Shown: piece after piece, positions 12,815 through 45,521 of the stretch
Position numbering within the stretch: the first letter of the stretch is position 1
Layout: each line of letters begins with the position of its first letter
NCBI GenBank assembly: GCA_022509065.1
Contig: JAFLTY010000003.1
Coordinates: 1,900 to 65,899 of the forward strand
Reading direction: 5' to 3'
DNA from: Muribaculaceae bacterium
Lineage (GTDB): Bacteria > Bacteroidota > Bacteroidia > Bacteroidales > Muribaculaceae
Length of the DNA stretch: 64,000 nt
Notes under the pieces: generated by a model
Told to the model about the DNA's origin: nothing
Databases searched by the model: none
The model's input: only the letters and a program-made list of their open reading frames with translations
Translations under genes and position numbers: made by a program

Positions 12815-12856
12815 GCGTGTAAGTTTTTAATCGGTTGATATGATTGGTTAAAGCCA

Positions 12857-15034: not shown

Positions 15035-15047
15035 GAGTCAGACAGGA

Positions 15048-18176: not shown

Positions 18177-18215
18177 GTATTTCTAAGGTCGTGAATAAAT
18201 GTGTTCTGAGGTACC

Positions 18216-19787: not shown

Positions 19788-19824
19788 TATTGGTTTTTGA
19801 TTGGTTTAGATTCTTTATCGACTA

Positions 19825-19832
19825 CAAATTTA
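19825..19832 (-). promoter_or_regulatory. Bacteroidetes -7 promoter box (TAAATTTG on minus strand) for TIG-susC operon
   Basis: The reverse complement of caaattta matches TAnnTTTG. It lies 37 nt upstream of the ATG at 19787. Confidence 0.5.
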
Positions 19833-19863
19833 TGTTCGATTTATAGCAACAAACAATAAAATG

Positions 19864-19893
19864 TGTTCAAATAAGTGAAATTTCTGTTCAAAT
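19864..19893 (-). promoter_or_regulatory. Direct repeat operator candidate: 2 x TGTTCAAAT (sense ATTTGAACA), 21-bp spacing, 31 nt from -7 box
   Basis: Perfect 9-mers at 19864-19872 and 19885-19893. The same geometry occurs at three other promoters in the window. Confidence 0.55.
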
Positions 19894-19993
19894 CGCTTGT
19901 TTTAGCGCTTATAAAAGGCTTGAAAAACATTCTTGCCCAATTATTCATGTTATATGACACAATTTTTTTATTTCACATTTTATTAAATTTTTG

Positions 19994-20001
19994 TATTTTT
20001 G
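19994..20001 (+). promoter_or_regulatory. Possible -7 box (TATTTTTG) for the GH43-like gene
   Basis: TAnnTTTG match directly upstream of the in-frame ATGs at 20005, 20014 and 20023. Confidence 0.3.
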
Positions 20002-20013
20002 CGCATGTCAACC

Positions 20014-21033
20014 ATGAAAAATATGAAAATATTAGTCTATATCGCCGCCCTCTGTTTAATTTTTCTTAGCGGATGTTCCAAAAAAGCCGAAACTGTAAGC
20101 CAACAGCCAACACTGCTTTTTGAAGGAGCGGCATATCCTAATATAACCTTTCACAACGGCAAATATTATTTCACTTGCCAGAGTCCCGACATTAATTTAT
20201 ATGTGGCGGATAACATTGACTCGCTTGCCACCGCGTCGCCCATTGTCATACTCAACGGCGCAGAAAACGGCATGATGAATATATGGTCTCCCGAAATTTC
20301 CCGCATAGGCGACAAATGGTATATATATTTCGAGGCAGACGACGGCAATACCGACAACCACCAGCTGTATGTGCTTGAAAACACGGAAGAAGACCCGCTG
20401 GAAGGCGAATGGTCTCTACATGGCCCCATTATCACCAACGAAGAGTGGAACTTCGGCATTCATCCCTCAACCTTTAACATCGGTGAACGTCAGTTCCTGT
20501 TATGGTCGGGCTGGGAGCATCGTCGCGCCGAAACAGAGACGCAATGTATTTTTATAGCCGAAATGGAAAATCCATGGACTCTCAAGTCGGGACGTGTCCT
20601 GTTGTCGCGTCCGCAGTATGAATGGGAAAGACAGTGGATAACTCCCTATGGCACACGCAGCGCATACCCGATTTTTGTGAACGAGAACCCGGAAGGGTTC
20701 CTGTCACCGGACAGCAGTCGGGTTTTCATAGCATATTCGGCCAGCGGTATATGGACACCCTACTCCATCGTAGGAATGCTTCATGCCGATGTCAATTCCG
20801 ATTTGCTTGAGCCGGCTTCGTGGACAAAATTGCCCGAACCCATGTCGCCCGTCTACGACACCAACAGCGACATTGTGGGTATATCAAACATTTCTGTCAT
20901 AACGCCGACGCCCGACGAACCGACCCTGGTCCTTTTCCAGGGACATCATCTTGTCGACGATCAGAAATACTCTGACATTTATGTACAGAATGTGACTTGG
21001 TCACCCGACGGACTTCCATCTTTCAATTTTTAA
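20014..21033 (+). CDS. GH43-like five-bladed beta-propeller glycosidase (lipoprotein)
   Basis: IWSPEISRIGDKWYIYFEADDG...HQLYVLEN...DPLEGEW and ...VNENPEGF are GH43-type blocks. Signal is MKNMKILVYIAALCLIFLSGC. The track start 19999 is a TTG that overlaps the putative -7 box, so the start is uncertain (20005, 20014 or 20023). Confidence 0.6.
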   Translation: MKNMKILVYIAALCLIFLSGCSKKAETVSQQPTLLFEGAAYPNITFHNGKYYFTCQSPDINLYVADNIDSLATASPIVILNGAENGMMNIWSPEISRIGDKWYIYFEADDGNTDNHQLYVLENTEEDPLEGEWSLHGPIITNEEWNFGIHPSTFNIGERQFLLWSGWEHRRAETETQCIFIAEMENPWTLKSGRVLLSRPQYEWERQWITPYGTRSAYPIFVNENPEGFLSPDSSRVFIAYSASGIWTPYSIVGMLHADVNSDLLEPASWTKLPEPMSPVYDTNSDIVGISNISVITPTPDEPTLVLFQGHHLVDDQKYSDIYVQNVTWSPDGLPSFNF

Positions 21034-21097
21034 CGTTATTGGTGCTGATGTGCTGACCGCACTGACCTATGTGCGTCGCCCCTGCATGCATTGCCAG

Positions 21098-24000
21098 TCA
21101 GGACTCAGCTCCCTCTGTTTGCGGAGGATAATCGCTTGGGAGCACACCGAATTTTTCACGGAAACATTTTGCGAAATAGGATGACGAGGTGAATCCCACC
21201 CTCTCTGAAACCTCTGTAACACGATAACCGTCGCGCAACAGCTGAGCGGCGTGGTTGAGGCGGAAGTTTTTAAGATACTCGTTGGGCGACATTCCTGTGA
21301 CCGCTGTTATCTTACGGTAGAAACTTGACCGGCTCATATTGAGGCGCTGTGCCAACAGGTCGATAGAAAATTCTTCGTTGTTTATCGACTCGGTAATGAG
21401 AGCGTTCATCTTTTCAAGGAACTCGGCATCCATCTTATTAAGACCTGCCATAGGCGACTTCGCATCGGGCAGATTGTTCTCGGAAGCCAGTTTCTCATAA
21501 ATAAGTCGGCGTGATTTCAACAGATTCTCTATTTGCAGGACAAGTTGTCGCATCGGGAACGGTTTCTCCAGATATACCTCGGCGCCACACATCAGTCCCT
21601 CCTCGTGTGCTTCGGGCGACGTCATGGCGGTGAGCAACACAAAGGGTATATGCGAGTAGTTGATATCGCCCTTAACTTTACGACACAACTCCAACCCGTC
21701 CATAACATCCATCATGACATCACTCACAATGATATCAATCTTATTGTCTTTCAGGACATCGAGCGCTTGCTGTCCATTCGATGCCGAAACGACGGTATAA
21801 TGACTGGCAAGCGTTTCGGTAATCATTTCGCGAAGGTCATCGTTGTCGTCCACAAGTAACACCGTTACATCCTGACGGGTTGCCACAGCATCCTCTCGCT
21901 CGTTAAAATCATCGTATTCTTTATCGTTAACAACCTCGAGATTATCGCCTTTCGGAATAGTAAGCGTAAACAAGGCACCTCCGTCTTCGGCACTTTCACC
22001 CACGATGATGTTTCCGCCATGCGCGTTGGCTATAAGCTTGGCGTAAGCGAGTCCAAGCCCGGTACCGAGAGTAGCGGCAACCTTATCGTTACCAATCTGG
22101 TAGTAAGTGTCAAAGATGCGCTCGCGCTCTGCTTCAGGTACACCGGGACCGTCATCGGCCACGGTCAGCTCTACAGTGCCGTCTTCTGTCTCCCGTAACG
22201 ATATGACCAATCGCGATTTAGCATATTTCATACCGTTGCCCAGCAAGTTCATAAACAGGCGTTCTATCTTATCGACATCGATAGTGGCACGCACATCATC
22301 CTCTGGCAGACGCAATACAAGATCCTTGCCTCGCACTCGCATGGGCTCTTCGAAACGCCGGTATATGTTACGCAACATATCCGAGACGTTGCAACGCGAA
22401 AGATTCAACCTTATCTCACTGTCACTTTCCGCACGGCGAAAATCCAACAGTTGGTTAGTAATACCAAGGAGATAGTCGATGTTGCGTTGCATTGACTTGA
22501 TATATTTGTCATTGGAGCTCTTGTTGTCAGATGGCTTCCCGGTTGTGGTCTCGCCGGCAAGCTGTTCCAGAGGCAGACTGATGAGCATAAGGGGCGTCCG
22601 TATCTCATGCACCAGGTCGACAAAGTAGCGGGTCTTGGCTTCGAAAACCTCGCGTTCCTTCTGCACTTGCACTTCCTGCATTTTTCGTTGCAGATTCCTT
22701 TGCACCAGTACGCGTCCTATCTTATAGGCCATCCAACCGAGCAGAATCAGCAAGATAAGATACGCCAAGAACGCCCAGTCGGTACGATACCATGGAGGAA
22801 GTATCGAGACACCCATGCGCGTAACCTCGGCATCCTTAAGTCCATGAGGACGTAGCAGAAACTCGTAATTTCCCGGCGACAGATTGTTATATGTCACTTC
22901 AGCTACGTTCGACCCTATTACCCATCCTTTGTCAATGCCTTCGAGCATATAGTCATAGCGCAAGTCGGATTCGCTGAGCGGTCTAATCGCGGCAAAACTT
23001 ATCGTAAAGGTATTGTCGGTATAGGGTAATTTAATATTATCCCGTGTATATAACGGCACGTTCAGGTTACGGCTGCTAAGTTCGTCCGAGTCATCGGGGA
23101 GAACCGGCAACGACAGAGCCAGAGGATATACTCTTGGCTTGTAATCATATTTTTGCAAACTGGCGGGGTTGAACAACATAAGCCCGTCGACACAACCGAT
23201 AGCCATCCAACCCTTGTCAAGGACAATAGCGGGACTACTGACAGGTATCTGGGCAGCTTGACGTGAAAAGTTAAAATAGCGATGGTTATCACCTTCGTCA
23301 GCCCTTACGAGCCATTCATCGGTTCCAAGCCAAATATTGCCAAGGTCGTCCGACCCCATAAAAGCTGTCAGCACATTATTCACCGCGGGCATTTCTATCT
23401 GTCTGAAATCCTCGATGCTGTCGTTATAAACGTATATTTCACCCTTTGATGATGCAGCCCATATACGTTTTTCGTTATCAAAAGCGAAAGCTGTTATCGG
23501 CGATGTATTAAGCGACTTACACCAGAAAGCGCGACTGAACCGCGGGTCATCGGGGCGACGGTAGTACAACCCGTTGTTCGAGGACGATATCCAAATACCA
23601 CCCGCATTGTCCTCCTGCATGCCCATGGCACGTGTATTCTGTTCGAACTCGGGTAGTTGCGGAAAATTGTCTCCTGCCTCGTCATAACGACACACACCCC
23701 AGTCGGTAAGAACGAGAATCTGACCCGATCGGGTGCATCCGATATGATTTATATTATTGCTTATGACAGTGTAGGGCTTATTCGGGTCGTATGTATAATG
23801 ACTTATAATGCCGTTGCGTGTGTCACACTTGTATATGCCGTCGTTGTGTGTTCCTATCCATAATTCCTCGCCTTTAAGCACCATGGTGGTCACAGACACA
23901 TCAGACAAATCGGTCACTATCGAAGGTCGGAATTGACGACTCGCGATATCGAAGACGCACACCCCGTCGTCAGTGCCTACCCATATTACATCGCGGCGAG

Positions 24001-25084
24001 GCGCAAAGGCCATCGCCCTTATGGCCGAATTAGCTTTCGGCAATCCCGTACCTTCCCATCCGACAAAGATAAAGGGCATTGAGCGCGTCATCAGTAGTTC
24101 CAAACCGCCAATACTTCTGACAACGATAAGGTTTCCGTCAGAGTCTTCTATCACCGATACGATAGGAGTGACCCCCGACGTGCTCGAGTTATATTGGCTG
24201 ACTTCGTTGAACTTTCCACTGATAGTCCCATACTGCCAGATACCTTCGTCACTGCTGATAAACAGCGAGCCGTCAGGCCGTGTTATCAAAGAGTTAGCCA
24301 CACCGATAAATCCGGGGGTGGAGATGGCTTTAATCTCGCCGGTCAAGCCCTCAAGAACATATAGACCGTTTCCCGAAGTCACCCAGAGGTCACGACCCGA
24401 AGGAGACAGCAATACGGCGTTTTTACTATTGACAAATCCGGGAATATGATATGACTTAATCATTTCGCCGTTGTCGTCGAACGACTGTATGTCGCCATCA
24501 AAAGTTGCCGCGTAAATAAGACCGTCGGCGCCTGTCACTATATCGCTATAGAATGACCCGTGGCGGCTGTTCTGTTTGAGCTCTGACTCAGAAGGGTCGT
24601 ATAAAAATACGCCTTGACCGAGGGTTCCTATCCATATCTTACCTTTTTCGCCGGCTATCACTCCGCTTACCTGAGAGCTTATGGTAACACCATATTTTGT
24701 GGTTGCAATAAATTTCTCAATAGTATTGTTGGCGCGGTCGTAAGTATAAAGCCCTTTATCGGTGCCTATCCACACCTTGTCACCATCCTCATAAAATGTC
24801 AGCACGGACATTCCCGAGATATTTTGTAACACTCGCGATTGGTTGCCAAAAACCGGCATACCGTTACCGTCGAAACACTCCAATCCGGAAGCTGTCCCTA
24901 CCCATAAAAATCCATATCGGTCGCGGAAGGCGCTAAGATTTTCTGTTTTATTCGCAACATCTGTCTTGATAATTTCGAAAATGGGAGAAGCGGCGAAAGA
25001 CACCTGACAGAAAAGACACCCAAGCAAGAGTACGCACATTGTGCGCAGTTTAAAAATCGATGTTTTTGTAGCTTTTTTATTCAT
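21098..25084 (-). CDS. Hybrid two-component system (HTCS) sensor kinase / response regulator with AraC-type HTH output
   Basis: The periplasmic region has beta-propeller repeats and a Y_Y_Y-like part. A TM segment follows, then H-box HEIRTPL, ATPase G-boxes DDGPGV and GTGLGLAYAK, and receiver LLVDDNDD...SDVMMDVMDG. The C-terminal AraC HTH reads SPNEYLKNFRLNHAAQLL. The ATG at 25084 gives MNKKATKTSIFKLRTMCVLLLGCLF. Confidence 0.9.
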   Translation of the reverse strand: MNKKATKTSIFKLRTMCVLLLGCLFCQVSFAASPIFEIIKTDVANKTENLSAFRDRYGFLWVGTASGLECFDGNGMPVFGNQSRVLQNISGMSVLTFYEDGDKVWIGTDKGLYTYDRANNTIEKFIATTKYGVTISSQVSGVIAGEKGKIWIGTLGQGVFLYDPSESELKQNSRHGSFYSDIVTGADGLIYAATFDGDIQSFDDNGEMIKSYHIPGFVNSKNAVLLSPSGRDLWVTSGNGLYVLEGLTGEIKAISTPGFIGVANSLITRPDGSLFISSDEGIWQYGTISGKFNEVSQYNSSTSGVTPIVSVIEDSDGNLIVVRSIGGLELLMTRSMPFIFVGWEGTGLPKANSAIRAMAFAPRRDVIWVGTDDGVCVFDIASRQFRPSIVTDLSDVSVTTMVLKGEELWIGTHNDGIYKCDTRNGIISHYTYDPNKPYTVISNNINHIGCTRSGQILVLTDWGVCRYDEAGDNFPQLPEFEQNTRAMGMQEDNAGGIWISSSNNGLYYRRPDDPRFSRAFWCKSLNTSPITAFAFDNEKRIWAASSKGEIYVYNDSIEDFRQIEMPAVNNVLTAFMGSDDLGNIWLGTDEWLVRADEGDNHRYFNFSRQAAQIPVSSPAIVLDKGWMAIGCVDGLMLFNPASLQKYDYKPRVYPLALSLPVLPDDSDELSSRNLNVPLYTRDNIKLPYTDNTFTISFAAIRPLSESDLRYDYMLEGIDKGWVIGSNVAEVTYNNLSPGNYEFLLRPHGLKDAEVTRMGVSILPPWYRTDWAFLAYLILLILLGWMAYKIGRVLVQRNLQRKMQEVQVQKEREVFEAKTRYFVDLVHEIRTPLMLISLPLEQLAGETTTGKPSDNKSSNDKYIKSMQRNIDYLLGITNQLLDFRRAESDSEIRLNLSRCNVSDMLRNIYRRFEEPMRVRGKDLVLRLPEDDVRATIDVDKIERLFMNLLGNGMKYAKSRLVISLRETEDGTVELTVADDGPGVPEAERERIFDTYYQIGNDKVAATLGTGLGLAYAKLIANAHGGNIIVGESAEDGGALFTLTIPKGDNLEVVNDKEYDDFNEREDAVATRQDVTVLLVDDNDDLREMITETLASHYTVVSASNGQQALDVLKDNKIDIIVSDVMMDVMDGLELCRKVKGDINYSHIPFVLLTAMTSPEAHEEGLMCGAEVYLEKPFPMRQLVLQIENLLKSRRLIYEKLASENNLPDAKSPMAGLNKMDAEFLEKMNALITESINNEEFSIDLLAQRLNMSRSSFYRKITAVTGMSPNEYLKNFRLNHAAQLLRDGYRVTEVSERVGFTSSSYFAKCFREKFGVLPSDYPPQTEGAES

Positions 25085-25092
25085 AAAGTACA

Positions 25093-25100
25093 CAAAGATA
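25093..25100 (-). promoter_or_regulatory. Possible -7 box (TATCTTTG on minus strand) for HTCS gene
   Basis: The reverse complement of caaagata matches TAnnTTTG. It is very close to the ATG at 25084, so it is uncertain. Confidence 0.25.
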
Positions 25101-25236
25101 CAAATTATTCGCAATTCATATGACAATCCGAAAGTTTTTTCATTCGTATCTGCCTTTTCAGACCCATTTCATGTTATTAAACTCTGCTATTTGGGAATGT
25201 TCTCCCCAAAAAACGTGACGCATGGATAGATATAAA

Positions 25237-27502: not shown

Positions 27503-28801
27503 TTATTTGATAATTAATTTCTTTCCGTTTTGTATATATATACCGGGAGCAAGCCCTTTTGTGTCTGTGCTGATGTATCTTCCGTAAAGGTCATAAATCC
27601 GATTGTCGGCAAAGCTTTTCTCTTCGCTAACAGGGAAGAACACAAAGTTTTGACTATATGGCATTTCTACAGCGAGTCCATAGTCAATATGGCCACCTCC
27701 GGCACCTTGCATCAATGATACGGCAAGTATGTTATCGCCCTCGTGAAGCAACGCTTTCTGCTCAGCGTTGAAGTTAAGACGGGCGTAGTCGTTATCGTTC
27801 CAGCCGGAGGCACTCCATAGCTGCGTGCCGTTTAGATACATGACAGGGTTTTCGTCATAGCTGCATGTCATAACCACACGGGAGTCCTCGTTGTTAATAG
27901 CCGCCATGTCATCGGCTGTAAGCGTAAAATGCCGTCGGACAAGAATGGGTCGTACCTGGCTTGGCCATTCCGTGACAAGGAACATATTCCTGTCGTTACT
28001 GAACGGTCCCACACCTTCAATCCAGAAAGTCTCGTCCTCGTCGCTACCGAACCATTCGGCGCGCTCGGCAGGTTCGATGTCTGTGTTGTAGTTAAGTATA
28101 TAGTATTTGCAGGGCCATGAGCCATCGGCAACCGTGTGCAGCAAAGTCCTGGTGACGGTCACGTCGGCGCCGTAGAGTCCGCAGTCGGCGAAAGCGCCTC
28201 CCCAGTTCTGATGGACATGGACTGCAATTATATTTTCTCCTTGTTTTAACAATGCTTTCTTATCGTCAGAAAGAAGCACGTATTCGTCATTGTTCCAGCC
28301 GTCCGTGACGCTGTGAACCATTTCTCCGTTTATATACCATTCGGACGGCGCGTCATCGTGTCCGCATGCCAGATATACAGGGCTGTCAGGCACGTTATCG
28401 AGTGTGAAAGTGCGCCGCAAATAAATCTCACCGGTTATGTCCGATGTTATCCAACGATATGAAGTCTGGCCATTGTAAACGGCGTCCGAGCTGAACGGAG
28501 CCCGTTGGATGCTCCACCCTTCTTCACCGTTATATCCGGGCATGTACCATGCATTCCCCTCATCGTCGGCGCCCGGTGTCGCCCATATCCTGTTATAGTC
28601 GGCGTCTGCGTAACGTTTGCCTTCGTTAAACACCCATACATTCGCTTCATAAGGAAGTGCGGGCGTGTACTGAGATGAAGGTAGAATAATGTTGTTGGGA
28701 TTGAAAGTGCTTCGCAACTCGTCCGTTACAGCCATAGCGCTAAAAGATGTTGACACCATGACGAGAGCCACTAACATTCCGGGATATTTGTTTTGTAACA
28801 T
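27503..28801 (-). CDS. Paralog A: secreted protein made of two jelly-roll (galactose-binding-like) modules plus short T9SS-like tail
   Basis: Signal peptide. Module 1 ends AVHVHQNWGGAFADCGLYGAD and module 2 ends AVSLMQGAGGGHIDYGLAVEMP. The tail is NRIYDLYGRYIS...APGIYIQNGKKLIIK. It aligns with the N-terminal halves of paralogs B and C. Confidence 0.7.
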   Translation of the reverse strand: MLQNKYPGMLVALVMVSTSFSAMAVTDELRSTFNPNNIILPSSQYTPALPYEANVWVFNEGKRYADADYNRIWATPGADDEGNAWYMPGYNGEEGWSIQRAPFSSDAVYNGQTSYRWITSDITGEIYLRRTFTLDNVPDSPVYLACGHDDAPSEWYINGEMVHSVTDGWNNDEYVLLSDDKKALLKQGENIIAVHVHQNWGGAFADCGLYGADVTVTRTLLHTVADGSWPCKYYILNYNTDIEPAERAEWFGSDEDETFWIEGVGPFSNDRNMFLVTEWPSQVRPILVRRHFTLTADDMAAINNEDSRVVMTCSYDENPVMYLNGTQLWSASGWNDNDYARLNFNAEQKALLHEGDNILAVSLMQGAGGGHIDYGLAVEMPYSQNFVFFPVSEEKSFADNRIYDLYGRYISTDTKGLAPGIYIQNGKKLIIK

Positions 28802-28889: not shown

Positions 28890-31577
28890 TTAGCGAACAA
28901 TAAACTTCTTACCGTTGCGGATATAGAGGCCGGGAACATTGGCGTTCTTAACTTCGATACCCTGCAGGTTGAAGATGCGGTTGTCTTCTGTTTCGGGAGC
29001 TACCTTAACGTCTTCCACACCGTCAACTACGGGTTTGCCAAGGTAAGTCAGTTTGAAGTTGTCAACGACAACCCAGTCTTGTTCTGCGTCAGACTGATTT
29101 TTGTAAACACCTATTACGGCTTTTTCCTGGCCTTCTTCGACTGTGAAGGGAACTACTGTCTTGTAAAGACCGGCTTTAAAGTAGCTGGTTACTTGCATGC
29201 ATCCGTCGGGGAACTCTACTTGCTCGCCGTCCTCGGTAGTTGTCACGCGACCTTCACCGGGAGCCATATTGCTTTCGCTCAGGATGTTGGGAAGTTCAAC
29301 GTCTTCGCCATCTTCATCGCTTCCTGCCACTACATAAGCGTACTGGGCGCGGTCATTGTCCACTTGATAATCGAAGCTGCCATTACGATAGAAACCTTGT
29401 ACTGTGAGTACATAGTCGCCTTCGGGAAGGCCTTCGATGAACTGGTTTAAGGTCATATCACTCGTATTCCACGATTCGAGAACGAAGTCATAATGATTTC
29501 CACCTCTTTCCCAAACACTGGCGTTCTCGATTTCCCAAGCATCCATAGTTACGCGTTGGTTGAAGCCGGGATTGACGATAAAGAGCGATGCGTCAACAGG
29601 ATTTTCTTCGCTGGCTTCGTCAAGAAGGGCAAGACGTTCTTCGCGAGTAACGAGTTTCCACATTGCGTTTTCGTTGGCTTTGTCAAGGTTGCGCGATTCG
29701 GTGCATACGTTTGTTTCGTCGCTCTGACCGCCGTCAACGCTTCCGTAGGGATCCCACTGTATGTGTACGTCGGGATAATCGCTCTGTACGATAAAGTAAA
29801 TATTGTCACGACCTTCTACGGGGACAAACGCCCAACCGTCCTGACCTACTGTGTGGCCGGCATCCATATAGCCGCGATAGTTCAGATAATGGTTGTTTTC
29901 ACCGTTATAAAGACCTGTTTCGATAACGAACGAAGGAACTCCAGCTTTGCTGTCCTCGATTTTTTCCATGAGGGTAAGTTCGTCGCCATAGAAGCCGAGA
30001 GCTGCGTGAGCACCCCAGTCTGAACCGCCCTGGAGGAACTGTTTCTGACCTACGTTGTAAAGATAGAATTTGCCTTCGGCGGCTTCGTTGCCTTCAAATA
30101 CATCTTCGTGTTTGTCGGCGGCTGCACGACGGCGAGCGTAACGCAGCGTGCGCAGAGCGTTATTGTAATCATCGCGTGTCTTAGCGGCAGCGAACTGCTC
30201 GACAGCGGTAGCGTCACTGTAAATCTTAAGAGTTGCGTTGAAGTTATTGATAGCTTCCGAAGCGTCGCGTACAGCGGCTATAGCGCCCTGAAGAGCATCT
30301 ATGGCACTATCGAAATCTTTCACGTTTTCACCGGTGGCCAATACTGCTTCGGCTGTTTCTATTGCTTTTTCAACTTGAGGTGTCTGCAAAGCTTCACGGG
30401 CTTCTTCTATGAGCTGAGAGAGAAGAGCTTTATGCAGAGTAAGGTCTTCGGTGAAAGTGAAACCGTCGCAAGGCATTTCAACATAGAGACCGAAATCGAT
30501 GTGACCGCCGCCACTGCCTTGTTGAGCCGATACGCCAATCACGTTTTTACCTTCCACAAACAGAGCTATTTGGTCTGGGTTGAGTTCGTGAAGGGCATAA
30601 TTGGAGTCGTTCCAACCTTCGGCACTCCAAATTTCAGTTCCGTTCAGATAAACATGAGGGTATTCGTCATAGCTGCAAGTCAGATATACTTTGCCATGAT
30701 CTTTAAGAGCTTCAAGGCTTTCGTCTGTCAATGTGAAATAACGACGAACCAGTATGGGGTTAGCATCGCTGTTCCAATATGTTGTGCGGAATTCGTCATT
30801 ACTGTTGCTGTAGGGACCCGAAGCTATTGTCCAGTTCGAATCATCAGCATTGATAGCAAAGCAACCGTCGGCCACTGCACCGGCGATAGCATCGTTATTT
30901 TCAACGAGAGTATATTTGCTTACCCAGCTCTTACCTACTGAAACAGGAGCGTGGATGTATAGTTTTACGTCAGCGCCATAAAGACCGCAGTCGGCGTAAG
31001 CGCCACCCCAGTTCTGGTGTACGTGAACGGCCATAAGGTTTTCACCTACCTGCAGAGCAGCTTTTTCTTCGTCCGAAAGAAGTACAACGGCTCCTTCGTC
31101 CCATCCTTCAGTTTCGAAATGAACGAGTTTACCATTAATATACCATTCTGACGGGGCGTCGTCACGACCGCAAGCAAGATAAACGGGACCTTCAGGAATT
31201 TCATCGAGAGTGAAAGCGCGACGTATATAGATGTCACCCATAATTTCTCCGGCAATCCATTTGTCAGTGGTGAAAGGAGATTCCTTTACTTCCCAGTCGA
31301 TATCAGCGCTGTTTGTAAGAGTATATGCGTTTTCAAACCACTCGTTACCTTCAGCATCCGCTTCGGGAGTGCCCCAGATTTTGTTGTAATTAGGTTCGCT
31401 ATACCTTTCGCCGGTATTTACAATCCATACATCGGCTGTCCAGGGACTGTCCGGAGTGTGACGCGATGACGGTAGTATCACCTTGTTTGTGTTAATTGAC
31501 ACAACTGTTTCTCCGTTTGCGTAACCACTAATTATGGTAGCAACGGCAACGGAAAGGGTTAATAAAAATTTTTTCAT
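28890..31577 (-). CDS. Paralog B: two jelly-roll modules + helical linker + ~430-aa C-terminal beta-rich region + short T9SS-like tail
   Basis: The ATG at 31577 gives MKKFLLTLSVAVATIISGYA; the track start 31610 is a GTG. Blocks HVHQNWGGAYADCGLYGAD, GSGGGHIDFGLYVEMP, YLYNVGQKQFLQGGSDWGAHAALG and NAMWKLVTR are present. The tail is NRIFNLQGIEVKNANVPGLYIRNGKKFIVR. Confidence 0.7.
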   Translation of the reverse strand: MKKFLLTLSVAVATIISGYANGETVVSINTNKVILPSSRHTPDSPWTADVWIVNTGERYSEPNYNKIWGTPEADAEGNEWFENAYTLTNSADIDWEVKESPFTTDKWIAGEIMGDIYIRRAFTLDEIPEGPVYLACGRDDAPSEWYINGKLVHFETEGWDEGAVVLLSDEEKAALQVGENLMAVHVHQNWGGAYADCGLYGADVKLYIHAPVSVGKSWVSKYTLVENNDAIAGAVADGCFAINADDSNWTIASGPYSNSNDEFRTTYWNSDANPILVRRYFTLTDESLEALKDHGKVYLTCSYDEYPHVYLNGTEIWSAEGWNDSNYALHELNPDQIALFVEGKNVIGVSAQQGSGGGHIDFGLYVEMPCDGFTFTEDLTLHKALLSQLIEEAREALQTPQVEKAIETAEAVLATGENVKDFDSAIDALQGAIAAVRDASEAINNFNATLKIYSDATAVEQFAAAKTRDDYNNALRTLRYARRRAAADKHEDVFEGNEAAEGKFYLYNVGQKQFLQGGSDWGAHAALGFYGDELTLMEKIEDSKAGVPSFVIETGLYNGENNHYLNYRGYMDAGHTVGQDGWAFVPVEGRDNIYFIVQSDYPDVHIQWDPYGSVDGGQSDETNVCTESRNLDKANENAMWKLVTREERLALLDEASEENPVDASLFIVNPGFNQRVTMDAWEIENASVWERGGNHYDFVLESWNTSDMTLNQFIEGLPEGDYVLTVQGFYRNGSFDYQVDNDRAQYAYVVAGSDEDGEDVELPNILSESNMAPGEGRVTTTEDGEQVEFPDGCMQVTSYFKAGLYKTVVPFTVEEGQEKAVIGVYKNQSDAEQDWVVVDNFKLTYLGKPVVDGVEDVKVAPETEDNRIFNLQGIEVKNANVPGLYIRNGKKFIVR

Positions 31578-31929: not shown

Positions 31930-34749
31930 TTAACGGACAATGAACTTCTTACCGTTGCTGATGTAGATGCCGGGAGTGTTGGCATTTTTCACTTCCATAC
32001 CCTGGAGGTTGAAGATACGGTTGTCAGCGGGACGTGCCACGCTATCGAACATAACATCTTCGACACCTGCAAGGTAATCTTTAACAGCCTGTTTGGTTGT
32101 GTCCTTACCGTAATATTTCAGACGGAAGTTGTCGACTACAATCCAGTCACCGGGTTCGTCACCGGCTTCTTCTTTGTACACACCGACCGACATATCAACG
32201 CCATCACCTTGTTCCACTACGGTATAGGCCTTATAAAGACCGAGTTTGAAGTAATTGGTGGCCTGGTTGCAGTATTCGGGAATGTGCCAGTTCTTTGTGC
32301 CATCGGCATTGCTGTAGTCTGCACCTTCGCCGGGAGCTTTTCCGCTTTCCGAAAGGATGTTGGGAAGCTGGACGTCGTCCTCATAGTCATTGCCGGCGAA
32401 AAGCCATGCATTCTGTTTTTCGGGCAGGTTGGCCTGACCTAAGCATTCGTAACCGTCGATATTGTCATGATATTTGTGTGAACCGTTACGGTAAAAACCT
32501 GTAACACTTACTTCATAGATACCTTCGGGAAGACCTTCGACCATTGTTACGAGTTCCGAGCTTTCTTGGTTCCACGATTCAGCTGTGAAATCGGGATAGT
32601 TGCCGCCACGTCCCCAGAATGCGAAGTTAGTTACAGACCAATTGTCAATGGTTTCGCGCTGATTGAAGTTGGGGTTGACGATGTAGTACGAAAGGTCAAC
32701 GGGGTTTTCGAGCGATGCGGTGGCGATAAGAGCGTCGCGTTCGGCGCGTGTCACCAGTTTCCACATAGCGTCTTCGTTAGTGGGATCGAGATTGCGAGAC
32801 TCGGTGCAAACGTTTGTTTCGTCGTTGTTGCCACCGTCTACGCTTCCGAAGGGATTCCATTGAACGTGTACATCGGGATAGTCAGCCTGTACAATATAAT
32901 ATGTGTTAGTACGACCTTCAACGGGAAGGAATGCCCAACCACCGGCACCTGCGTCGTAACCGCTGTCCATATAACCGCGATAACCGAGGAAATGTTGTTC
33001 GGCGCCGTTATAGAGACCGGTTTCGATGACGTAAGCTTTTGTTCCGGCGTTAGTTTCGGCTATTTCGTCGATGAGGTTGATTTCGTTACCGATAATACCG
33101 AGAGCGGCGTGTGCGCCCCAGTCAGAACCGCCCTGAAGGAACTGTTTCTGACCTACGTTGTAAAGATAGTAAGCGCCTTCGGCGGGTTCAGCGCCTACAA
33201 ACACGTCTTCCTGAGTTTCGGCAACCGAACGACGGCGAGCGAAACGCAGAGTCTTGATAGCGTTTGCATAATCGTCGCGTGTTTGAGCAGCTTCGAATTT
33301 AGCTGTTGCTTCCGCATCGGTAAAGATGGACTGAGTGTCATAATAAGCCTGAATGTCGTTGCGTGCAGCACGGATAACGGCTATGGCGCTCTGTAGTTTA
33401 TCGATAGCTTCGAGAAGAGCTGTCGATGTGGGTGTGCCGGCGAGGATAGCTTCGGCATCTGCTATCTGAGTAGCAAAGTGAGGTGTCGTGGGAAGCGACT
33501 TAGCCTGGTCGATAAGTGCCTGCAGCTGTTCCTTGAGAGGTTCTGTACCGCCACTCATCTCAACATTGTCGCAATAAGATACTGAATAGAAACCGTAGTC
33601 AATGTGACCACCGCCACCACCGCGCTGTACTGATACTGCAAGAACGTTGTCACCTTCAACAAGAAGAGCGACCTGTTCGGGGGTCAGTTCGTATGTATCG
33701 TAGCGTGCATCGTTCCAACCGTCTGCGCTCCAGATAAGTTCGCCGTTGAGGTAAACTTTAGGATACTCGTCGTAGCTGCATGTCAGGAAAGCGTTGCTCA
33801 TAGCAGCGATTTCCGAAGCGGTAAGGGTGAAGTGACGACGAACGAGCAGGGCTGTACCCATATTCTCTTCACCAAGGTCAGTGTTACTGTTCCAATAGGT
33901 AACACGGAACTGGTCGTCGCTGTTACTGAACGAACCCTGACCTACTGTCCAGTCGGATTCGTCAGCGTCTTTGGCAAAAGCGCCGGCTTCGACTGCGGCA
34001 GCGATATCTTCGTTAGTGTCAATTAATTTATAAACACAGTCCCAAGCACCGTCAGCAACGGTATTGAGGTAGCTTGTCTTATAGTCGGCAGCGTACAGAC
34101 CGCAGTCGGCGAAAGCACCGCCCCAGTTCTGGTGCACATGCACGGCTAATACGTTTTCGCCCGGCTTAAGAAGAGCCTTCTGCGACTCTTCCAAAAGAAC
34201 ATATTCTCCGTTGTTCCAACCGTCGGCAACCATGTGTACAAGGACACCGTTGAGATAGTATTCAGCGGGAGCGTCATCGTGTCCGCAAGCAAGGTAAATG
34301 GGACCGTCGTGTACTGTGTTGAGAGTGAATGTGCGACGCATGTAGAAATCGCCCATGATGTCGCTGGTGATCCATTGGAATGATTTGTTGTCTTTATAAT
34401 ACTCGTCCGAGCTGAAAGGAGCGGTTTCGAGAGTCCATTCCGAACTTTCACCGTTAACAGGCGAGTAATTCACCGCATACCATGCGTTGCCGGCTGCGTC
34501 GTTGGCGGGCACGCCCCATACATGGTTGTAGTTTTCGTTTTCGTAACCTTGCGCACCTTCGTAACGTTGACCTGTGTTAACAACGTAGACAAGAGCCTGA
34601 TAGGGAAGGTTGGGTGTATACTCCGACGAAGGGAGTATAACATTGGCAGCATTCCACGTCGGTGTAACGTCACCTTCGGCATACGCTGCGACGGGAGCCA
34701 TCGCTATGGCGGCGACAGCAAACATCCCGGCTAAGTAAAATTTTTTCAT
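31930..34749 (-). CDS. Paralog C: same architecture as B (939 aa)
   Basis: Signal MKKFYLAGMFAVAAIAMAPVAAYA. Blocks HVHQNWGGAFADCGLYAAD, RGGGGGHIDYGFY, YLYNVGQKQFLQGGSDWGAHAALG and DAMWKLVTR are present. The tail is NRIFNLQGMEVKNANTPGIYISNGKKFIVR. Confidence 0.7.
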   Translation of the reverse strand: MKKFYLAGMFAVAAIAMAPVAAYAEGDVTPTWNAANVILPSSEYTPNLPYQALVYVVNTGQRYEGAQGYENENYNHVWGVPANDAAGNAWYAVNYSPVNGESSEWTLETAPFSSDEYYKDNKSFQWITSDIMGDFYMRRTFTLNTVHDGPIYLACGHDDAPAEYYLNGVLVHMVADGWNNGEYVLLEESQKALLKPGENVLAVHVHQNWGGAFADCGLYAADYKTSYLNTVADGAWDCVYKLIDTNEDIAAAVEAGAFAKDADESDWTVGQGSFSNSDDQFRVTYWNSNTDLGEENMGTALLVRRHFTLTASEIAAMSNAFLTCSYDEYPKVYLNGELIWSADGWNDARYDTYELTPEQVALLVEGDNVLAVSVQRGGGGGHIDYGFYSVSYCDNVEMSGGTEPLKEQLQALIDQAKSLPTTPHFATQIADAEAILAGTPTSTALLEAIDKLQSAIAVIRAARNDIQAYYDTQSIFTDAEATAKFEAAQTRDDYANAIKTLRFARRRSVAETQEDVFVGAEPAEGAYYLYNVGQKQFLQGGSDWGAHAALGIIGNEINLIDEIAETNAGTKAYVIETGLYNGAEQHFLGYRGYMDSGYDAGAGGWAFLPVEGRTNTYYIVQADYPDVHVQWNPFGSVDGGNNDETNVCTESRNLDPTNEDAMWKLVTRAERDALIATASLENPVDLSYYIVNPNFNQRETIDNWSVTNFAFWGRGGNYPDFTAESWNQESSELVTMVEGLPEGIYEVSVTGFYRNGSHKYHDNIDGYECLGQANLPEKQNAWLFAGNDYEDDVQLPNILSESGKAPGEGADYSNADGTKNWHIPEYCNQATNYFKLGLYKAYTVVEQGDGVDMSVGVYKEEAGDEPGDWIVVDNFRLKYYGKDTTKQAVKDYLAGVEDVMFDSVARPADNRIFNLQGMEVKNANTPGIYISNGKKFIVR

Positions 34750-35052: not shown

Positions 35053-38000
35053 ATGAAAAAAATCAGTCTGTACCTATCGGCACTATCGTTAATGGCCACG
35101 GCTTCCCTGCCCGCCACAGCTCAGACAGCAGCCGATTTCGTTCCCTACCGGCAAACCGACATTCGTATGCCGTCGGTTCCCCTGTTGGTGAACGACCCCT
35201 ATTTCTCTATCTGGTCTAACTATGACGCACTCAACGGCGGTCCCACACGCATGTGGTGCGAACATGAAAAAGCAATTGAAGGCATACTGCGCGTTGATGG
35301 CACAGCCTATCGCTTTATGGGCACAGGCATCAAAACGCTGTTGCGTCCCATCGCCGGTATGACTGTCGACGGCACCGACTGGTCGGGTAGAGTCAGCTAC
35401 AACAAACGCACTGACGCCCAATGGGCAACTCCCGGCTTTGACGACAGCAGTTGGGCTGTCGAGGAGGCCGCATGGGGAACACCCGGTGAATATCCCAATG
35501 TCAGAAACAAATGGACCGGCGACAACAAAGATATCTACGTGCGCCGTACCGTTACCCTCACTCCCGAGGACTTGGAGAAAGACCTGTGGGTAATGTACTC
35601 GCACGATGACGTTTTCGAACTCTACGTTAACGGCACACGCGTTGTATCGACAGGCGAGACATGGCGTCAAGGCGAGCAACACCGCCTCAGCGATGCCGAA
35701 AAAGCTCTTCTTAAACCCGGCGACAATATCATAGCAGGCTATTGCCACAATACAACCGGTGGCTCGTACATCGATTTCGGTCTGTATGAAAACACTCTGC
35801 CCGAGGGAGCCGATACCCAGATGGCTCAACAGAACTCGGTTTATGTCCTTGCCACAAGTTCCTACTACAACTTCACCTGTGGGCCTGTAAACCTCGACTT
35901 GGTGTTTACCGCCCCCATGCTGATTGACGATCTCGACCTTATCTCTACTCCCATCAACTTCATTTCCTATCAAGTGACAGCCAACGACGGTAAGGAACAT
36001 GACGTGCAGTTCTATCTGGGCACATCGGCACAGCTCACTGTCAACGAGATGAGCCAACCCACCATAACCACCACTGTCAAGGAAGGCGGAATAACATACG
36101 CCAAAGCTGGCTCCGAGGCTCAGAATATACTTGGACGCTCGGGCGATATGATTTCGATTGACTGGGGTTATCTCTACATACCAGCTATTAACGGCGAAGT
36201 CAGTGTGGCTCCTGTCGAGACATCCGAAGCTTACTTCATTAAAACAGGTAAACTTCCCGAAAATGTCAGCGGCGAAATACGCAGTACAAACCGCGCCAAC
36301 ATGCCTGTCATTAACTTCGTTAACGATATGGGTAAAATAAAAGAAGGCCGCTCATTTATGATGATAGGCTATGACGAAGTGTACGACATGCAGTATATGC
36401 ACAATAACTACAAGGCATACTACGCTCGTAACGGCAAAACAATATTTGACGCATTTAAAGAGTTCAACCGCGACTATTCCAGCCTGATGGAGCGTTGCCG
36501 CGCACTTGACAAAATGATATACGACGACGGCCTTGCGGCAGGCAATGTCAAATATGCCGAACAACTTTCGGGTTGCTACCGCCACGTCATGGCCGCTCAC
36601 AAACTCTTTGAGGACAACACAGGTAAAGCACTGTATTTCTCGAAAGAAAACAAGTCTAACGGTTGCGTTAACACCGTCGACCTTACATACCCCGAATCGC
36701 CTCTCTATCTCCTCTACAACCCCGAGTTGCAGAAAGGTATGATTCTTTCAATACTTGACTACGCATTGTCCGACGCACGCAAGGGTAAAAACTGCGCCGC
36801 CCATGACCTGGGACAATATCCTCTGGCAAACGGACAGGTGTACGGCGACACAATGCCTCTTGAAGAATCTGCAAACATTATCCTGTTGGCCGATGCTATT
36901 TGCCGTATCACCGGCGATGGTGAATGGCTAAAACCCTATCGCAACGTCCTGAAAACATGGGCCGACTACTGTTATGCAGAAGGCCAGAATCCCGGCAACC
37001 AGCTCTGTACAGACGACTTTAAGGGTCCAAGCGAACAAAACACTAACCTTTCCGTCAAGGCCATTATGGCAGTGGCCGCTTACTCAAACCTTATCCCTTA
37101 CATCGGAGCTAATGCGCGTGACATCGAGAAATATCAAAAATACGCACAGGATATGGCTCTTATTTGGGAAGGAACCGCACGCGACGGTGACCACTACCGC
37201 ATGGAATTCCACAAACCGGGCACATGGAGTCAGAAATACAACCTTGTATGGGACAAAATGTGGGGTCTCGAGCTTTTCCCACAGGAAGTACTCGACCGCG
37301 AAATCAAATTCTACCTCAACCATCAGCAGAAATACGGACTGCCCCTTGACAGCCGCGACTTCATGACAAAGAGCGACTGGATAATGTGGACTGCCTCAAT
37401 GGCTCCCGACACCGAAACATTCCTTAAATTCTCGGACAAACATTACGACTACATCAACGAAACCACCTCGCGAATACCGTTGAGCGACTTCTTCTGGGCT
37501 CACACCGGCGTATCGTGCAACTTTAGCGCACGTTCGGTCATTGGCGGTCTGTGGATGAAAGTCCTCATGGATAAATACGCCCCCGTTAAGGAAGCTACCG
37601 CTTGGTCGCCCAAAGGAAACCACATCAAAACACGTTGGGCAGAACAAGTCAATCCCGAGTGTCCTCTTCCTGAACATCCCAAACCTCTGATGGTACGCAA
37701 CGAATGGAAAAACCTCAACGGACTTTGGGAATATGCCATAGGCGAATCAAACGGCACAGCGCCGACAGTTTGGGAAGGCGAGATTCTCGTTCCCTACCCC
37801 ATAGAGTCAAGTCTGTCGGGCGTTATGCGTCCTCTCGAACCGGGCAAAGCGCTTTGGTATAAAAAAGACATAGTTGTTCCCGAGGAATGGGACGGCAAGA
37901 AAGTGCTTCTGAACTTCGGAGCTGTCGACTATCAGGCAACCGTGTATGCCAACGGAACAAGCGGGCGCAACCAGATTGGTTCGCATATCGGTGGCCATAC

Positions 38001-39567
38001 GGCATTTACTGTTGACCTCACCAATTATCTCACCGATGGTAAAGCGACAGTCTACGTCAAAGTTATCGACAACACTGACGAGGGCAGACAACCTGTAGGC
38101 AAGCAGCGTCGTTATCCCGCCGGAAACGGTGACATCAATTACACCTCGACTTCAGGCATCTGGCAGACCGTATGGTTGGAAGCCGTTCCCCAAGCCTACA
38201 TCACCGACATACGCACTACTCCCGACGTAGATAACAGCAACCTCACTTTCGATGTCGCTCTGAAAGGTACTATAGGCGGCGAAGTTGAAGTCAAGGTTCT
38301 TGACGGTAACACTGTTGTGGCACAGAAATCTGTACCTGCAGCCAACACCACGACATTAACCCTCGATATTCCCGACGCTAAGTTGTGGAGTCCGGCACAT
38401 CCCAACCTCTATAACGTGCAAGTGACTTACACCAACGGCGATAACATCGATAAGGTTGACAGCTATGCCGCTCTTCGCAAGATATCATACGCCAAAGACG
38501 ATAAAGGGTTCTGGCGCCTTCAACTTAACAATAAAGACCTTTTCCAATTCGGTCCTCTTGACCAAGGTTATTGGCCCGACGGCCTGTTGACAGCTCCTAC
38601 CGACGAAGCTCTTCGCTTTGATTTGGAAAAAACAAAAGACTGGGGCTTCAACATGGTTCGCAAACACATGAAAGTCGAACCGGCACGCTGGTATTGGCAC
38701 TGCGACAGCCTTGGATTACTGGTATGGCAGGATATGCCCTCGCAATTCACCACCGACGAAGGCGACTGGCACGTCTTTGACTGGTATCCCGAACATAACT
38801 GCTCGATAGACCCGACAATCGAGAAAAATTTCAAAAACGAATGGCAGGAAATCATCGAACAGCACTATTCTAACCCGTGTATTGTCGTTTGGACACCGTT
38901 TAACGAACGCTGGGGTCAGTTCAAGACAGCCGAGATAGTGGCTTTCACTCAACAACTCGATCCCACGCGCCTGGTTAACCCGGCCAGTGGCGGCAACCAC
39001 TACAAACTTGGCGAAGGTACATTTGTGGATCAACACACCTATGACCAACCGATAGTCGTTTACGAAGGAGTGTTCGACTATACACGCCCCTACGTGTTGG
39101 GCGAGTATGGAGGCCTTGGTCGCAACATATCCGGTCATCGCTGGTATGAAAAAGACTCGCAGACATACAACACCTACCCCAACGAAAAAGCCATCACGGA
39201 CGCCTACGTCACACTGGTGGGTCAAATACAGAACATCGCCAACGGATACGTTAACAACGGACGCCATATTTGCTATGGAGCCGCGGTTTACACACAGACC
39301 ACCGATGTCGAAACAGAAGTAAACGGCATCATGACATACGACCGCGAAGTCATTAAGTTTGATGAAGACCGTATACGCGCTGCCGCCCACGCGCTAACCT
39401 CGATGTTTGGAAATGAAGACTCGGGCGTGGCTGTAGTCCCTTTCGTTGACGGCACCGGTGAACCTATCTATTATGATGTAATGGGGATTCGTCATAATGC
39501 GCCGGTGCCCGGAATCAATATAATTCTAAACCCCGACGGTTCAGCTTCTAAACAGCTGATTAAATAA
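35053..39567 (+). CDS. 1504-aa chimeric secreted enzyme: glutaminase-A-like (DUF4964/DUF5127/DUF4965/DUF1793-type) module with inserted jelly-roll, fused to a complete GH2 module, plus T9SS-like tail
   Basis: The N-terminus PSVPLLVNDPYFSIWS...LRVDGTAYRFMG is glutaminase-like. The insert WATPGFDDSSW...IYVRRTV...LSDAEKALLKPGDNIIAGYCHNTTGGSYIDFGLY aligns with paralogs A-C. The (alpha/alpha)6-type part reads VDLTYPESPLYLLYNP...AHDLGQYP...EESANIILLA. From about nt 37600 the GH2 blocks are NFGAVDYQATVYANG, GIWQTVWLE, WTPFNERWGQF and VLGEYGG. Confidence 0.7.
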   Translation: MKKISLYLSALSLMATASLPATAQTAADFVPYRQTDIRMPSVPLLVNDPYFSIWSNYDALNGGPTRMWCEHEKAIEGILRVDGTAYRFMGTGIKTLLRPIAGMTVDGTDWSGRVSYNKRTDAQWATPGFDDSSWAVEEAAWGTPGEYPNVRNKWTGDNKDIYVRRTVTLTPEDLEKDLWVMYSHDDVFELYVNGTRVVSTGETWRQGEQHRLSDAEKALLKPGDNIIAGYCHNTTGGSYIDFGLYENTLPEGADTQMAQQNSVYVLATSSYYNFTCGPVNLDLVFTAPMLIDDLDLISTPINFISYQVTANDGKEHDVQFYLGTSAQLTVNEMSQPTITTTVKEGGITYAKAGSEAQNILGRSGDMISIDWGYLYIPAINGEVSVAPVETSEAYFIKTGKLPENVSGEIRSTNRANMPVINFVNDMGKIKEGRSFMMIGYDEVYDMQYMHNNYKAYYARNGKTIFDAFKEFNRDYSSLMERCRALDKMIYDDGLAAGNVKYAEQLSGCYRHVMAAHKLFEDNTGKALYFSKENKSNGCVNTVDLTYPESPLYLLYNPELQKGMILSILDYALSDARKGKNCAAHDLGQYPLANGQVYGDTMPLEESANIILLADAICRITGDGEWLKPYRNVLKTWADYCYAEGQNPGNQLCTDDFKGPSEQNTNLSVKAIMAVAAYSNLIPYIGANARDIEKYQKYAQDMALIWEGTARDGDHYRMEFHKPGTWSQKYNLVWDKMWGLELFPQEVLDREIKFYLNHQQKYGLPLDSRDFMTKSDWIMWTASMAPDTETFLKFSDKHYDYINETTSRIPLSDFFWAHTGVSCNFSARSVIGGLWMKVLMDKYAPVKEATAWSPKGNHIKTRWAEQVNPECPLPEHPKPLMVRNEWKNLNGLWEYAIGESNGTAPTVWEGEILVPYPIESSLSGVMRPLEPGKALWYKKDIVVPEEWDGKKVLLNFGAVDYQATVYANGTSGRNQIGSHIGGHTAFTVDLTNYLTDGKATVYVKVIDNTDEGRQPVGKQRRYPAGNGDINYTSTSGIWQTVWLEAVPQAYITDIRTTPDVDNSNLTFDVALKGTIGGEVEVKVLDGNTVVAQKSVPAANTTTLTLDIPDAKLWSPAHPNLYNVQVTYTNGDNIDKVDSYAALRKISYAKDDKGFWRLQLNNKDLFQFGPLDQGYWPDGLLTAPTDEALRFDLEKTKDWGFNMVRKHMKVEPARWYWHCDSLGLLVWQDMPSQFTTDEGDWHVFDWYPEHNCSIDPTIEKNFKNEWQEIIEQHYSNPCIVVWTPFNERWGQFKTAEIVAFTQQLDPTRLVNPASGGNHYKLGEGTFVDQHTYDQPIVVYEGVFDYTRPYVLGEYGGLGRNISGHRWYEKDSQTYNTYPNEKAITDAYVTLVGQIQNIANGYVNNGRHICYGAAVYTQTTDVETEVNGIMTYDREVIKFDEDRIRAAAHALTSMFGNEDSGVAVVPFVDGTGEPIYYDVMGIRHNAPVPGINIILNPDGSASKQLIK

Positions 39568-45498: not shown

Positions 45499-45521
45499 CA
45501 ACCCATTACGCCATAATCATC

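Follow-up and report, generated by a model that had tools for sequence, protein, structure and literature searches.

Type-A C-terminal domains (CTDs) are necessary and sufficient for type IX secretion system (T9SS) export, and the cargo of this system is usually counted via the models TIGR04183 or PF18962. For type-B signals, a PorP/SprF partner and upwards of 100-200 residues are required. In a stretch of 64,000 nucleotides from a Muribaculaceae bacterium (assembly GCA_022509065.1, contig JAFLTY010000003.1, positions 1,900 to 65,899; hereafter the window), a Bacteroidales polysaccharide utilization locus (PUL) region, several proteins end in a common short tail. Here we describe this tail, carried by enzymes and glycan binders that are exported by Sec and for the most part are not lipoproteins, and consider it probable that it represents a reduced type-A T9SS CTD, i.e., a "mini-CTD" of ~41-50 residues.

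Among the described signals, the type-A CTD (TIGR04183/PF18962; RgpB, PorZ, HBP35) shares with the tail its place at the very C-terminus of Bacteroidota proteins exported by Sec, a G-x-Y strand (motif D), a basic last strand (motif E), a h-h-D/N-L-x-G-+-x-V hairpin with a flexible linker ahead, and the same cargo families (adhesin domains, BspA leucine-rich repeats (LRR), glycoside hydrolases); enriched sub-threshold matches and bridging intermediates connect the two. In contrast to the ~70-100 residues of type-A CTDs, the tail has ~41-50, is without the PNP motif and motif A, has a last hairpin reduced to an N-G turn, lacks ~15 central residues, is predicted to form a meander of three to four strands instead of a seven-strand sandwich, and fails the curated cut-offs. 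The last 22 residues of the Porphyromonas gingivalis HBP35 CTD (motifs D and E) are enough to secrete green fluorescent protein, and the interactions with PorM and PorV are governed by these two motifs (PMC10202324). This piece is essentially the best-conserved part of the tail; it is, however, a laboratory truncation in one species, whereas the tail is natural, widespread, and has in addition a conserved hairpin upstream and, in the linker, an x-G-[IV] motif. CTDs of type B (TIGR04131) and type C (NF033708, ChiA) are also C-terminal T9SS signals whose sequences differ from type A, and thus the T9SS accepts several signal classes. The lipoprotein export route of Bacteroides PULs (SusD/E/F-like) likewise places enzymes and binders on the cell surface, but its signal is N-terminal, while that of the tail carriers, most of which have no lipobox, is C-terminal.

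A short tail shared by proteins of the window

The original prediction held that five proteins of the window share the tail. Translation yields all five of these C-termini, and a hidden Markov model (HMM) built from 115 tails of other genomes only, and scored against the 727 six-frame segments of the window, detected four of them (Table 1), namely those of three paralogs (A, B and C) and of a GH76 glycoside hydrolase, whose tail reached E 0.00098 among 2218 C-termini; that of a 1504-residue enzyme was not significant by itself (E 3.6). The tails of B and C are of a short-loop class, those of A and GH76 of a long-loop class, and the GH76 orthologue of a syntenic locus (L001) has a tail nearer the consensus (...VYTLTGVRLGFLDEVKSTLASGLYIVGNHKVYISH).

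Along its whole length, paralog C shares 51% identity with B. Paralog B probably begins at the ATG at 31577 and would then have 895 residues, the same as in the protein P0001. In paralog A (432 residues), the first ~380 residues of B/C are followed directly by the tail, with the ~500 residues between them gone, i.e., it is a domain-deleted copy that kept its tail. The three belong to a large Muribaculaceae/Prevotellaceae family (900-1250 residues) for which neither Pfam nor NCBIfam has a model, and those relatives of B with a source name carry Muribaculaceae or Bacteroidaceae labels of metagenome-assembled genomes (MAGs). A full AlphaFold2 (AF2) model of paralog A contains two GH2-N-terminal-like sugar-binding jelly rolls, and going by this model, the paralogs are probably non-catalytic glycan binders.

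The 1504-residue enzyme is a GtaA-like module (DUF4964, DUF5127, GtaA_6_Hairpin) fused to GH2. An HMM made from homologues of paralog B ranked its tail fifth (E 0.061), directly behind that of GH76 (0.048), and the same variant is common to the orthologues P0078-P0080 (e.g., ...NVYTLSGMHVDSLIRGINIVHNQDGSVNKIFCKK). A separate GH2 paralog (43684-45498, plus strand, 604 residues), 46% identical to the GH2 part, has no tail and stops just ahead of where that of the 1504-residue enzyme starts; the two make a natural pair, of which one has the tail and the other lacks it. As the HMM scores are not significant, the orthologues and this paralog back the tail only indirectly as a looser variant of the shared one.

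Breadth, position and hosts

The tail ends 72 of the 81 homologues of paralog B. Its consensus reads [DT]G[IV]xx[IV], 8-15 residues, h-Y-N/D-L-x-G-[QR]-x-h, 3-15 residues, K-G-h-[YN]-I-x-N-G-K-K-x-x-x-K, and, counted from the x-G-[IV] motif onwards, most of the 239 parsed tails measure 41-50 residues. The terminal consensus KG[IV]YIxNGKKxxxK contains motif D (G-x-Y) as well as motif E, the Lys/Arg strand at the terminus. A degenerate codon scan for G-h-Y-I-x-N-G-K-K, with one genome per species, yielded at least 120 stretches; among those listed there were 128 matches, 126 of which have a stop 0-7 codons further on (94 at exactly 4). Both exceptions among the matches listed, in an Anditalea MAG and a WOR-3 MAG, lie outside Bacteroidales and are chance matches. 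Searched against 1.84 billion representatives at 50% identity, a tail profile matched 56,227 proteins at E <= 1e-3 (1,941 at E <= 1e-10); of the best 149 of the 56,227, the match reaches the last residue in 142.

Hosts among the matches listed comprise Prevotella, rumen and gut MAGs of Prevotellaceae and "Bacteroidaceae", Segatella copri, Hoylesella, Hallella, Xylanibacter, Alloprevotella and Paludibacteraceae, together with Muribaculum, Sangeribacter and Lepagella of the Muribaculaceae; no named Bacteroides or Phocaeicola isolate is found among the ~126 C-terminal matches listed. The carriers are unrelated to each other (GH76, GtaA/GH2, a GH43 arabinanase (PDB 4KCA), CapCBM89 (PDB 7JVI), and proteins with BACON, CHB_HEX_C, BspA-type LRR, Cleaved_Adhesin and Big_2 domains), and the tail is conserved across orthologues of 30-50% overall identity. 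As far as sequences tell, the tail forms a separate module at the C-terminus that is portable and of wide occurrence; a chance motif is ruled out by its C-terminal position and breadth.

Taxonomic labels of two MAG series (SRP..._co..._... and H07.../G02...-L1_cleanbin; L155, L186, L200, L131, L046, L098 and others) are unreliable, with bins named Staphylococcus, Clostridium, Lachnospiraceae and Alistipes holding galactokinase genes of Bacteroidales/Muribaculaceae type. Bins labelled "Oscillospiraceae", "Oscillibacter" and "Bacteroides sp." were rejected as a sign of wider distribution, as their MAG series are demonstrably mislabelled. Two short open reading frames among the protein representatives (P0087, P0101) have two tandem copies of the tail (e.g., ...YKGIIIQNGKKAVKTAKATDGAIYNLAGQKVDSSYKGIVIKNGKKYINNFDK), which could be a duplication or an artefact of assembly or gene calling. 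The tail also occurs within the chain sequences of two crystallized-protein entries, PDB 4KCA (rumen GH43 arabinanase, residues 642-682) and PDB 7JVI (capybara CapCBM89, residues 802-842), and the paper on 7JVI does not mention it.

Relation to type-A CTDs

When 119 tails were scanned singly against NCBIfam, 21 matched TIGR04183 with E no higher than 0.1 (best 2.6e-5), 5 and 2 tails matched two further T9SS models, and each remaining family with a score was matched by one; in the corresponding Pfam scan PF18962 was matched by 11 tails and any other family by at most two. Judged from these scans, such a clustering of weak matches on one family cannot be chance. In a profile-profile comparison (hhalign) of 118 tails with a small canonical CTD alignment (P 8.3e-5), the tail segment I-Y-x-L-x-G-r-r-v pairs with i-y-D-l-s-G-k-q-v in the motif-C region of the CTD, after which the alignment jumps ~15 CTD columns and pairs l-x-k-G-I-Y-I with L-x-x-G-m-Y-i (motif D). 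Searched against PDB, the tail profile weakly matched the RgpB CTD entries (E 0.05-0.26).

Intermediates close the gap further. The tail HMM recovered 41 additional variant C-termini from the fetched loci, including forms with an extended last hairpin (e.g., ...GIYIVLTDDGTVARRDKIAVE) and PNP-less intermediates; TIGR04183 was matched by 7 of 10 such variants, and two of those that matched the tail HMM lie above the TIGR04183 cut-off, at 23.8 bits (L014, profile positions 15-72) and 26.3 bits (L068, profile positions 20-70). Thus, the bridging variants form an unbroken series from the canonical CTD through PNP-less CTDs and long-loop tails to short-loop tails. The TIGR04183 alignments of tails begin at profile position 15-23 or later.

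We consider the homology of the tail to type-A CTDs well supported by these comparisons, and in this respect the original prediction of a T9SS-CTD relation is borne out by the weak matches (21/119 for TIGR04183), the hhalign result and the PNP-less intermediates. Its comparison with TIGR04131 came to nothing, as no tail matched this model. The view of the tail as the distal half of a CTD needs amending: motifs D and E are kept, but so is a motif-C-like hairpin, and there is an internal deletion of ~15 columns as well as a shortened last hairpin. On this reading, the hairpin h-Y-x-L-x-G-[RQ]-x-h (motif-C region) is retained, as are motif D, in the form of the strand G-h-Y-I, and motif E, a basic strand K-K-h-h-h-K at the end that follows the preceding one after a tight N-G turn. 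Gone are motifs A and B, i.e., the PNP strands at the N-terminal side, together with ~15 residues from the centre and the greater part of the loop of the last hairpin. Neither TIGR04131 nor PF13585 (type B) is present in the match lists of the window tails and the 119 tails, NF033708 (type C) is weakly matched by only two of the 119 (best E 0.013, cut-off 40 bits), and a type-B or type-C identity is left without model support. An outer membrane protein β-signal was also rejected, the tail ending in Lys or Arg and not in an aromatic residue.

The window itself provides a canonical counterpart, a small protein of 201 residues whose gene adjoins that of GH76. Its C-terminus (residues 130-201) reaches 32.4 bits with TIGR04183 (cut-off 23), in keeping with the full type-A CTD that had been claimed for it, and 23.1 bits with PF18962, under the cut-off of 27; by these scores we take it to be a genuine full type-A CTD. 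A homologue search with this CTD found nothing, and phmmer against PDB gave no CTD match. The same type of search with a canonical CTD from locus L002 gave five close relatives only, and hence no broad canonical CTD profile could be made; the narrow one misses the RgpB CTD in PDB and, iterated over ~1 Mb of loci, found no additional canonical CTDs, nor did a regular-expression search for PNP-type CTDs return anything useful. Two relatives of the L002 protein (P0084, P0086) have a T-T-A-I-E motif upstream of the PNP strand that is similar to the T-G-I-E / D-G-V-E at the start of the short tails, and this may be a common linker or processing site.

Predicted structure and signal peptides

The AF2 model of the last 58 residues of paralog B, computed with 28 aligned tails, has a mean predicted local distance difference test (pLDDT) score of 82.7 (~92 over the last 28 residues) and strands at 31-33 (IFN), 38-39 (EV), 46-50 (GLYIR) and 53-57 (KFIVR), with no regular structure in the x-G-V-E-D-V region. 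Likewise, in the full model of paralog A the linker (385-398) is below pLDDT 50 and the tail (399-432) at 81-88. In the AF2 models, a disordered linker thus leads into a small β-meander.

By a simple sequence heuristic, 77 of the 90 complete carrier open reading frames have a Sec signal peptide, many with a site of the A-x-A↓Q type, and four a possible lipobox. All six window proteins, i.e., the tail carriers and the small CTD protein, have a Sec signal peptide by the same heuristic, of signal peptidase I type in A, B, C, the 1504-residue enzyme and the small protein. The N-terminus of GH76 is ambiguous (11514-11561, minus strand; MRKVVLLLTGILWSSC then AVVGQLTD, i.e., …LWSSC↓AVVGQ), and can be read as a lipobox or as a signal peptidase I site before Gln; if lipidated, the protein would combine an N-terminal anchor with the C-terminal tail.

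A proposed export route and its alternatives

Because motifs D and E are kept, HBP35 offers a precedent, and a T9SS occurs in Muribaculaceae and in oral Prevotella, we infer that the tail directs its carriers to the T9SS, and likewise that it is cleaved off and where the cargo ends up. All ten T9SS core genes are found in most Muribaculaceae genomes (PMC4936053), and in oral Prevotella species the T9SS has been shown to be functional. We propose that Sec and signal peptidase I bring the carrier into the periplasm, where the T9SS would recognise the folded β-meander via motifs D and E, with PorM and PorV as putative contacts. The carrier would then cross the outer membrane via Sov, the PorU sortase would probably remove the tail close to the x-G-[IV]-x-x-[IV] motif conserved in the linker, and the cargo would either be set free or stay anchored to the cell surface. 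For the PUL of the window, such a route would make the endo-mannanase GH76, the jelly-roll binders A, B and C, and the GtaA/GH2 enzyme extracellular with no lipid anchor.

Several observations weigh against such a reduced type-A signal. The five window tails lie below the curated cut-off of the type-A model and match none of TIGR04183, TIGR04131 and PF18962 even at E <= 10, and that of the 1504-residue enzyme is not significant even with the tail HMM. PNP occurs in 0 of the 239 parsed tails, i.e., motifs A and B (PNP strand) are absent, and these are modelled as PorV contacts (PMC10202324). The three to four short strands that AF2 places in the last ~30 residues are not the seven-stranded Ig-like sandwich, and Foldseek with the isolated tail model against PDB gave noise only, the model being too small. 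No T9SS core gene (porK/L/M/N, sov, porU, porV etc.) lies within the window, where the Muribaculaceae assignment and the gene of the canonical CTD protein are indirect signs of a T9SS in this genome. TXSscan reportedly finds a T9SS in some Segatella clades only (PMC11514259), and a Segatella copri genome (L112) bears a tail despite this patchiness. Moreover, as the tail is lineage-restricted and the host sample is without Porphyromonas, Tannerella, Flavobacteriia and other T9SS-positive groups, the co-occurrence of tail and T9SS is confounded with phylogeny.

Given that motifs A/B and the sandwich fold are missing, a separate receptor or anchoring route has to be weighed. The tail could be derived from a CTD and yet form its own sorting or anchoring class outside the classical PorV/PorU type-A route, with its own receptor or shuttle (cf. 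PorP/SprF of type B) or by docking its carriers non-covalently to a partner on the surface, e.g., the SusC/D complex. The great uniformity of the tail, its confinement to particular lineages and its enrichment on the PUL-encoded proteins of the window would fit such a class, as would the several T9SS signal classes with differing partners (PMC10202324); on the other hand, there is a graded series from the canonical CTD to the tail, the best-kept parts are precisely motifs D and E, the published PorM/PorV determinants, and no conserved partner gene was noticed beside the tail genes in the window. We regard this possibility as unlikely. A bolder version, in which the mini-CTD makes up a fourth T9SS-type signal class with its own recognition or anchoring partner and the main surface or export route of PUL proteins in Prevotellaceae/Muribaculaceae, is in our estimate rather doubtful.

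We deem it very unlikely that the tail is unrelated to the T9SS and resembles CTD strands by convergence only, be it as a small module that binds carbohydrates or proteins, as a tag for interaction or degradation in the periplasm, or as one for sorting into outer-membrane vesicles. Curated CTD models indeed leave the window tails uncalled, Foldseek gives no CTD match, a T9SS is reported absent from some Segatella clades (PMC11514259), and the composition of a short, β-rich tail could partly explain weak profile matches. These matches, however, cluster on T9SS models (21, 5 and 2 of 119 tails vs at most one for each remaining family with a score), bridging intermediates exist, and the carriers include the classic T9SS cargo families Cleaved_Adhesin and BspA-LRR; a binding module would not need to stop exactly at the last residue, and the lack of named Bacteroides/Phocaeicola isolates in the matches listed also speaks against a function apart from the T9SS. 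Finally, tails shorter than all curated CTDs that fail the family models might be decaying remnants of full CTDs with no current function, which is scarcely credible for a tightly conserved motif in 56,227 clusters that persists in orthologues of 30-50% overall identity and even in the domain-deleted paralog A.

The locus

The galactokinase of the window has its best matches in Muribaculaceae MAGs (identity up to 85%), and on sequence evidence of this kind we assign the DNA to this family. The PUL core (Table 1) is accompanied by glycoside hydrolases of the families GH76, GH92, GH125, GH43 (two), GH3, GH127, GH2, GH36 and GH32. GH76, GH92 (40673-42988) and GH125 (45474-46985) co-occur, and these three are the classic α-mannan-degrading trio; the enzyme set looks α-mannan-directed, and the locus probably targets fungal-type mannan or another complex glycan. 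The DUF4973 protein, with an N-terminus ...LTSC then NNDW, appears to use the lipoprotein export route. Elsewhere in the window, a BNR-repeat gene (7308-9350) and the gene of the small CTD protein overlap by 4 nt (9347-9350), which suggests translational coupling.

Table 1. Tails, the canonical CTD and PUL genes of the window (positions in the 64,000-nt stretch; E-values are from the independent tail HMM)
Feature	Position	Strand	Gene	Basis
Paralog B short tail, 44 aa + stop, DGVEDVKVAPETEDNRIFNLQGIEVKNANVPGLYIRNGKKFIVR	28890-29024	-	28890-31577 (probable)	translation; E 1.7e-14
Paralog C short tail, 46 aa + stop, AGVEDV...DNRIFNLQGMEVKNANTPGIYISNGKKFIVR	31930-32070	-	31930-34749	translation; E 7.5e-14
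Paralog A short tail, ...ADNRIYDLYGRYISTDTKGLAPGIYIQNGKKLIIK + stop	27503-27640	-	27503-28801	translation; E 1.2e-13
GH76 long-loop tail variant, AVEDII...EVYSLTGRHIGTLKNVRDSLPKDVYIVGHSKVVLGK + stop	9996-10148	-	9996-11561	PF03663; E 0.0022 (window)
1504-aa enzyme, possible loose, extended-hairpin tail variant, SGVAVV...PIYYDVMGIRHNAPVPGINIILNPDGSASKQLIK + stop	39421-39567	+	35053-39567	translation; not significant
Canonical type-A T9SS CTD with PNP motif, 201-aa protein	9347-9565	-	9347-9952	TIGR04183 match
PUL core (context)	11744-25126	-		Pfam
DUF4973 surface-glycan-binding-like lipoprotein	11744-12814	-		Pfam
SusD	12857-15034	-		Pfam
SusC	15048-18176	-		Pfam
TIG-domain protein	18216-19787	-		Pfam
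Hybrid two-component regulator	21098-25126	-		Pfam
GH43 gene, opposite strand to PUL core	19999-21033	+		Pfam

Implications

We found no description of the tail in the literature (searched for T9SS in Muribaculaceae, Prevotella and Segatella, for 4KCA/7JVI and for the motif strings) and no model for it in Pfam (to 2025) or NCBIfam release 20 (June 2026). It thus appears to be a newly described, reduced type-A-like T9SS signal, a cut-down relative of the known CTD. TIGR04183 and PF18962 miss nearly all tails, yet these occur in 56,227 clusters (50% identity) in gut and rumen Bacteroidales, and a dedicated tail HMM would improve annotation. A natural signal without motifs A and B would inform on what the translocon, PorV and PorU require of a CTD and gives an experimental handle on the minimal requirements of a T9SS signal; the tail is also a compact candidate export tag, and could be trimmed off recombinant constructs such as those of PDB 4KCA and 7JVI.

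In a 2024 study of rumen Segatella/Xylanibacter PULs, T9SS cargo was sought with TIGR04183 only, and the T9SS was judged unlikely to help Xylanibacter ruminicola degrade polysaccharides (PMC11107044). Such conclusions would be false negatives, provided that the tail acts as a T9SS signal. Should the doubtful fourth-class reading be true, the lipoprotein route of Bacteroides would be largely replaced in Prevotellaceae/Muribaculaceae, and both T9SS cargo counts and glycan-foraging models for these dominant gut and rumen lineages would need revision. With the reading we favour, a reduced type-A CTD that serves as a T9SS signal, many PUL surface enzymes of Prevotella, Segatella and Muribaculaceae would be T9SS cargo and not lipoproteins.

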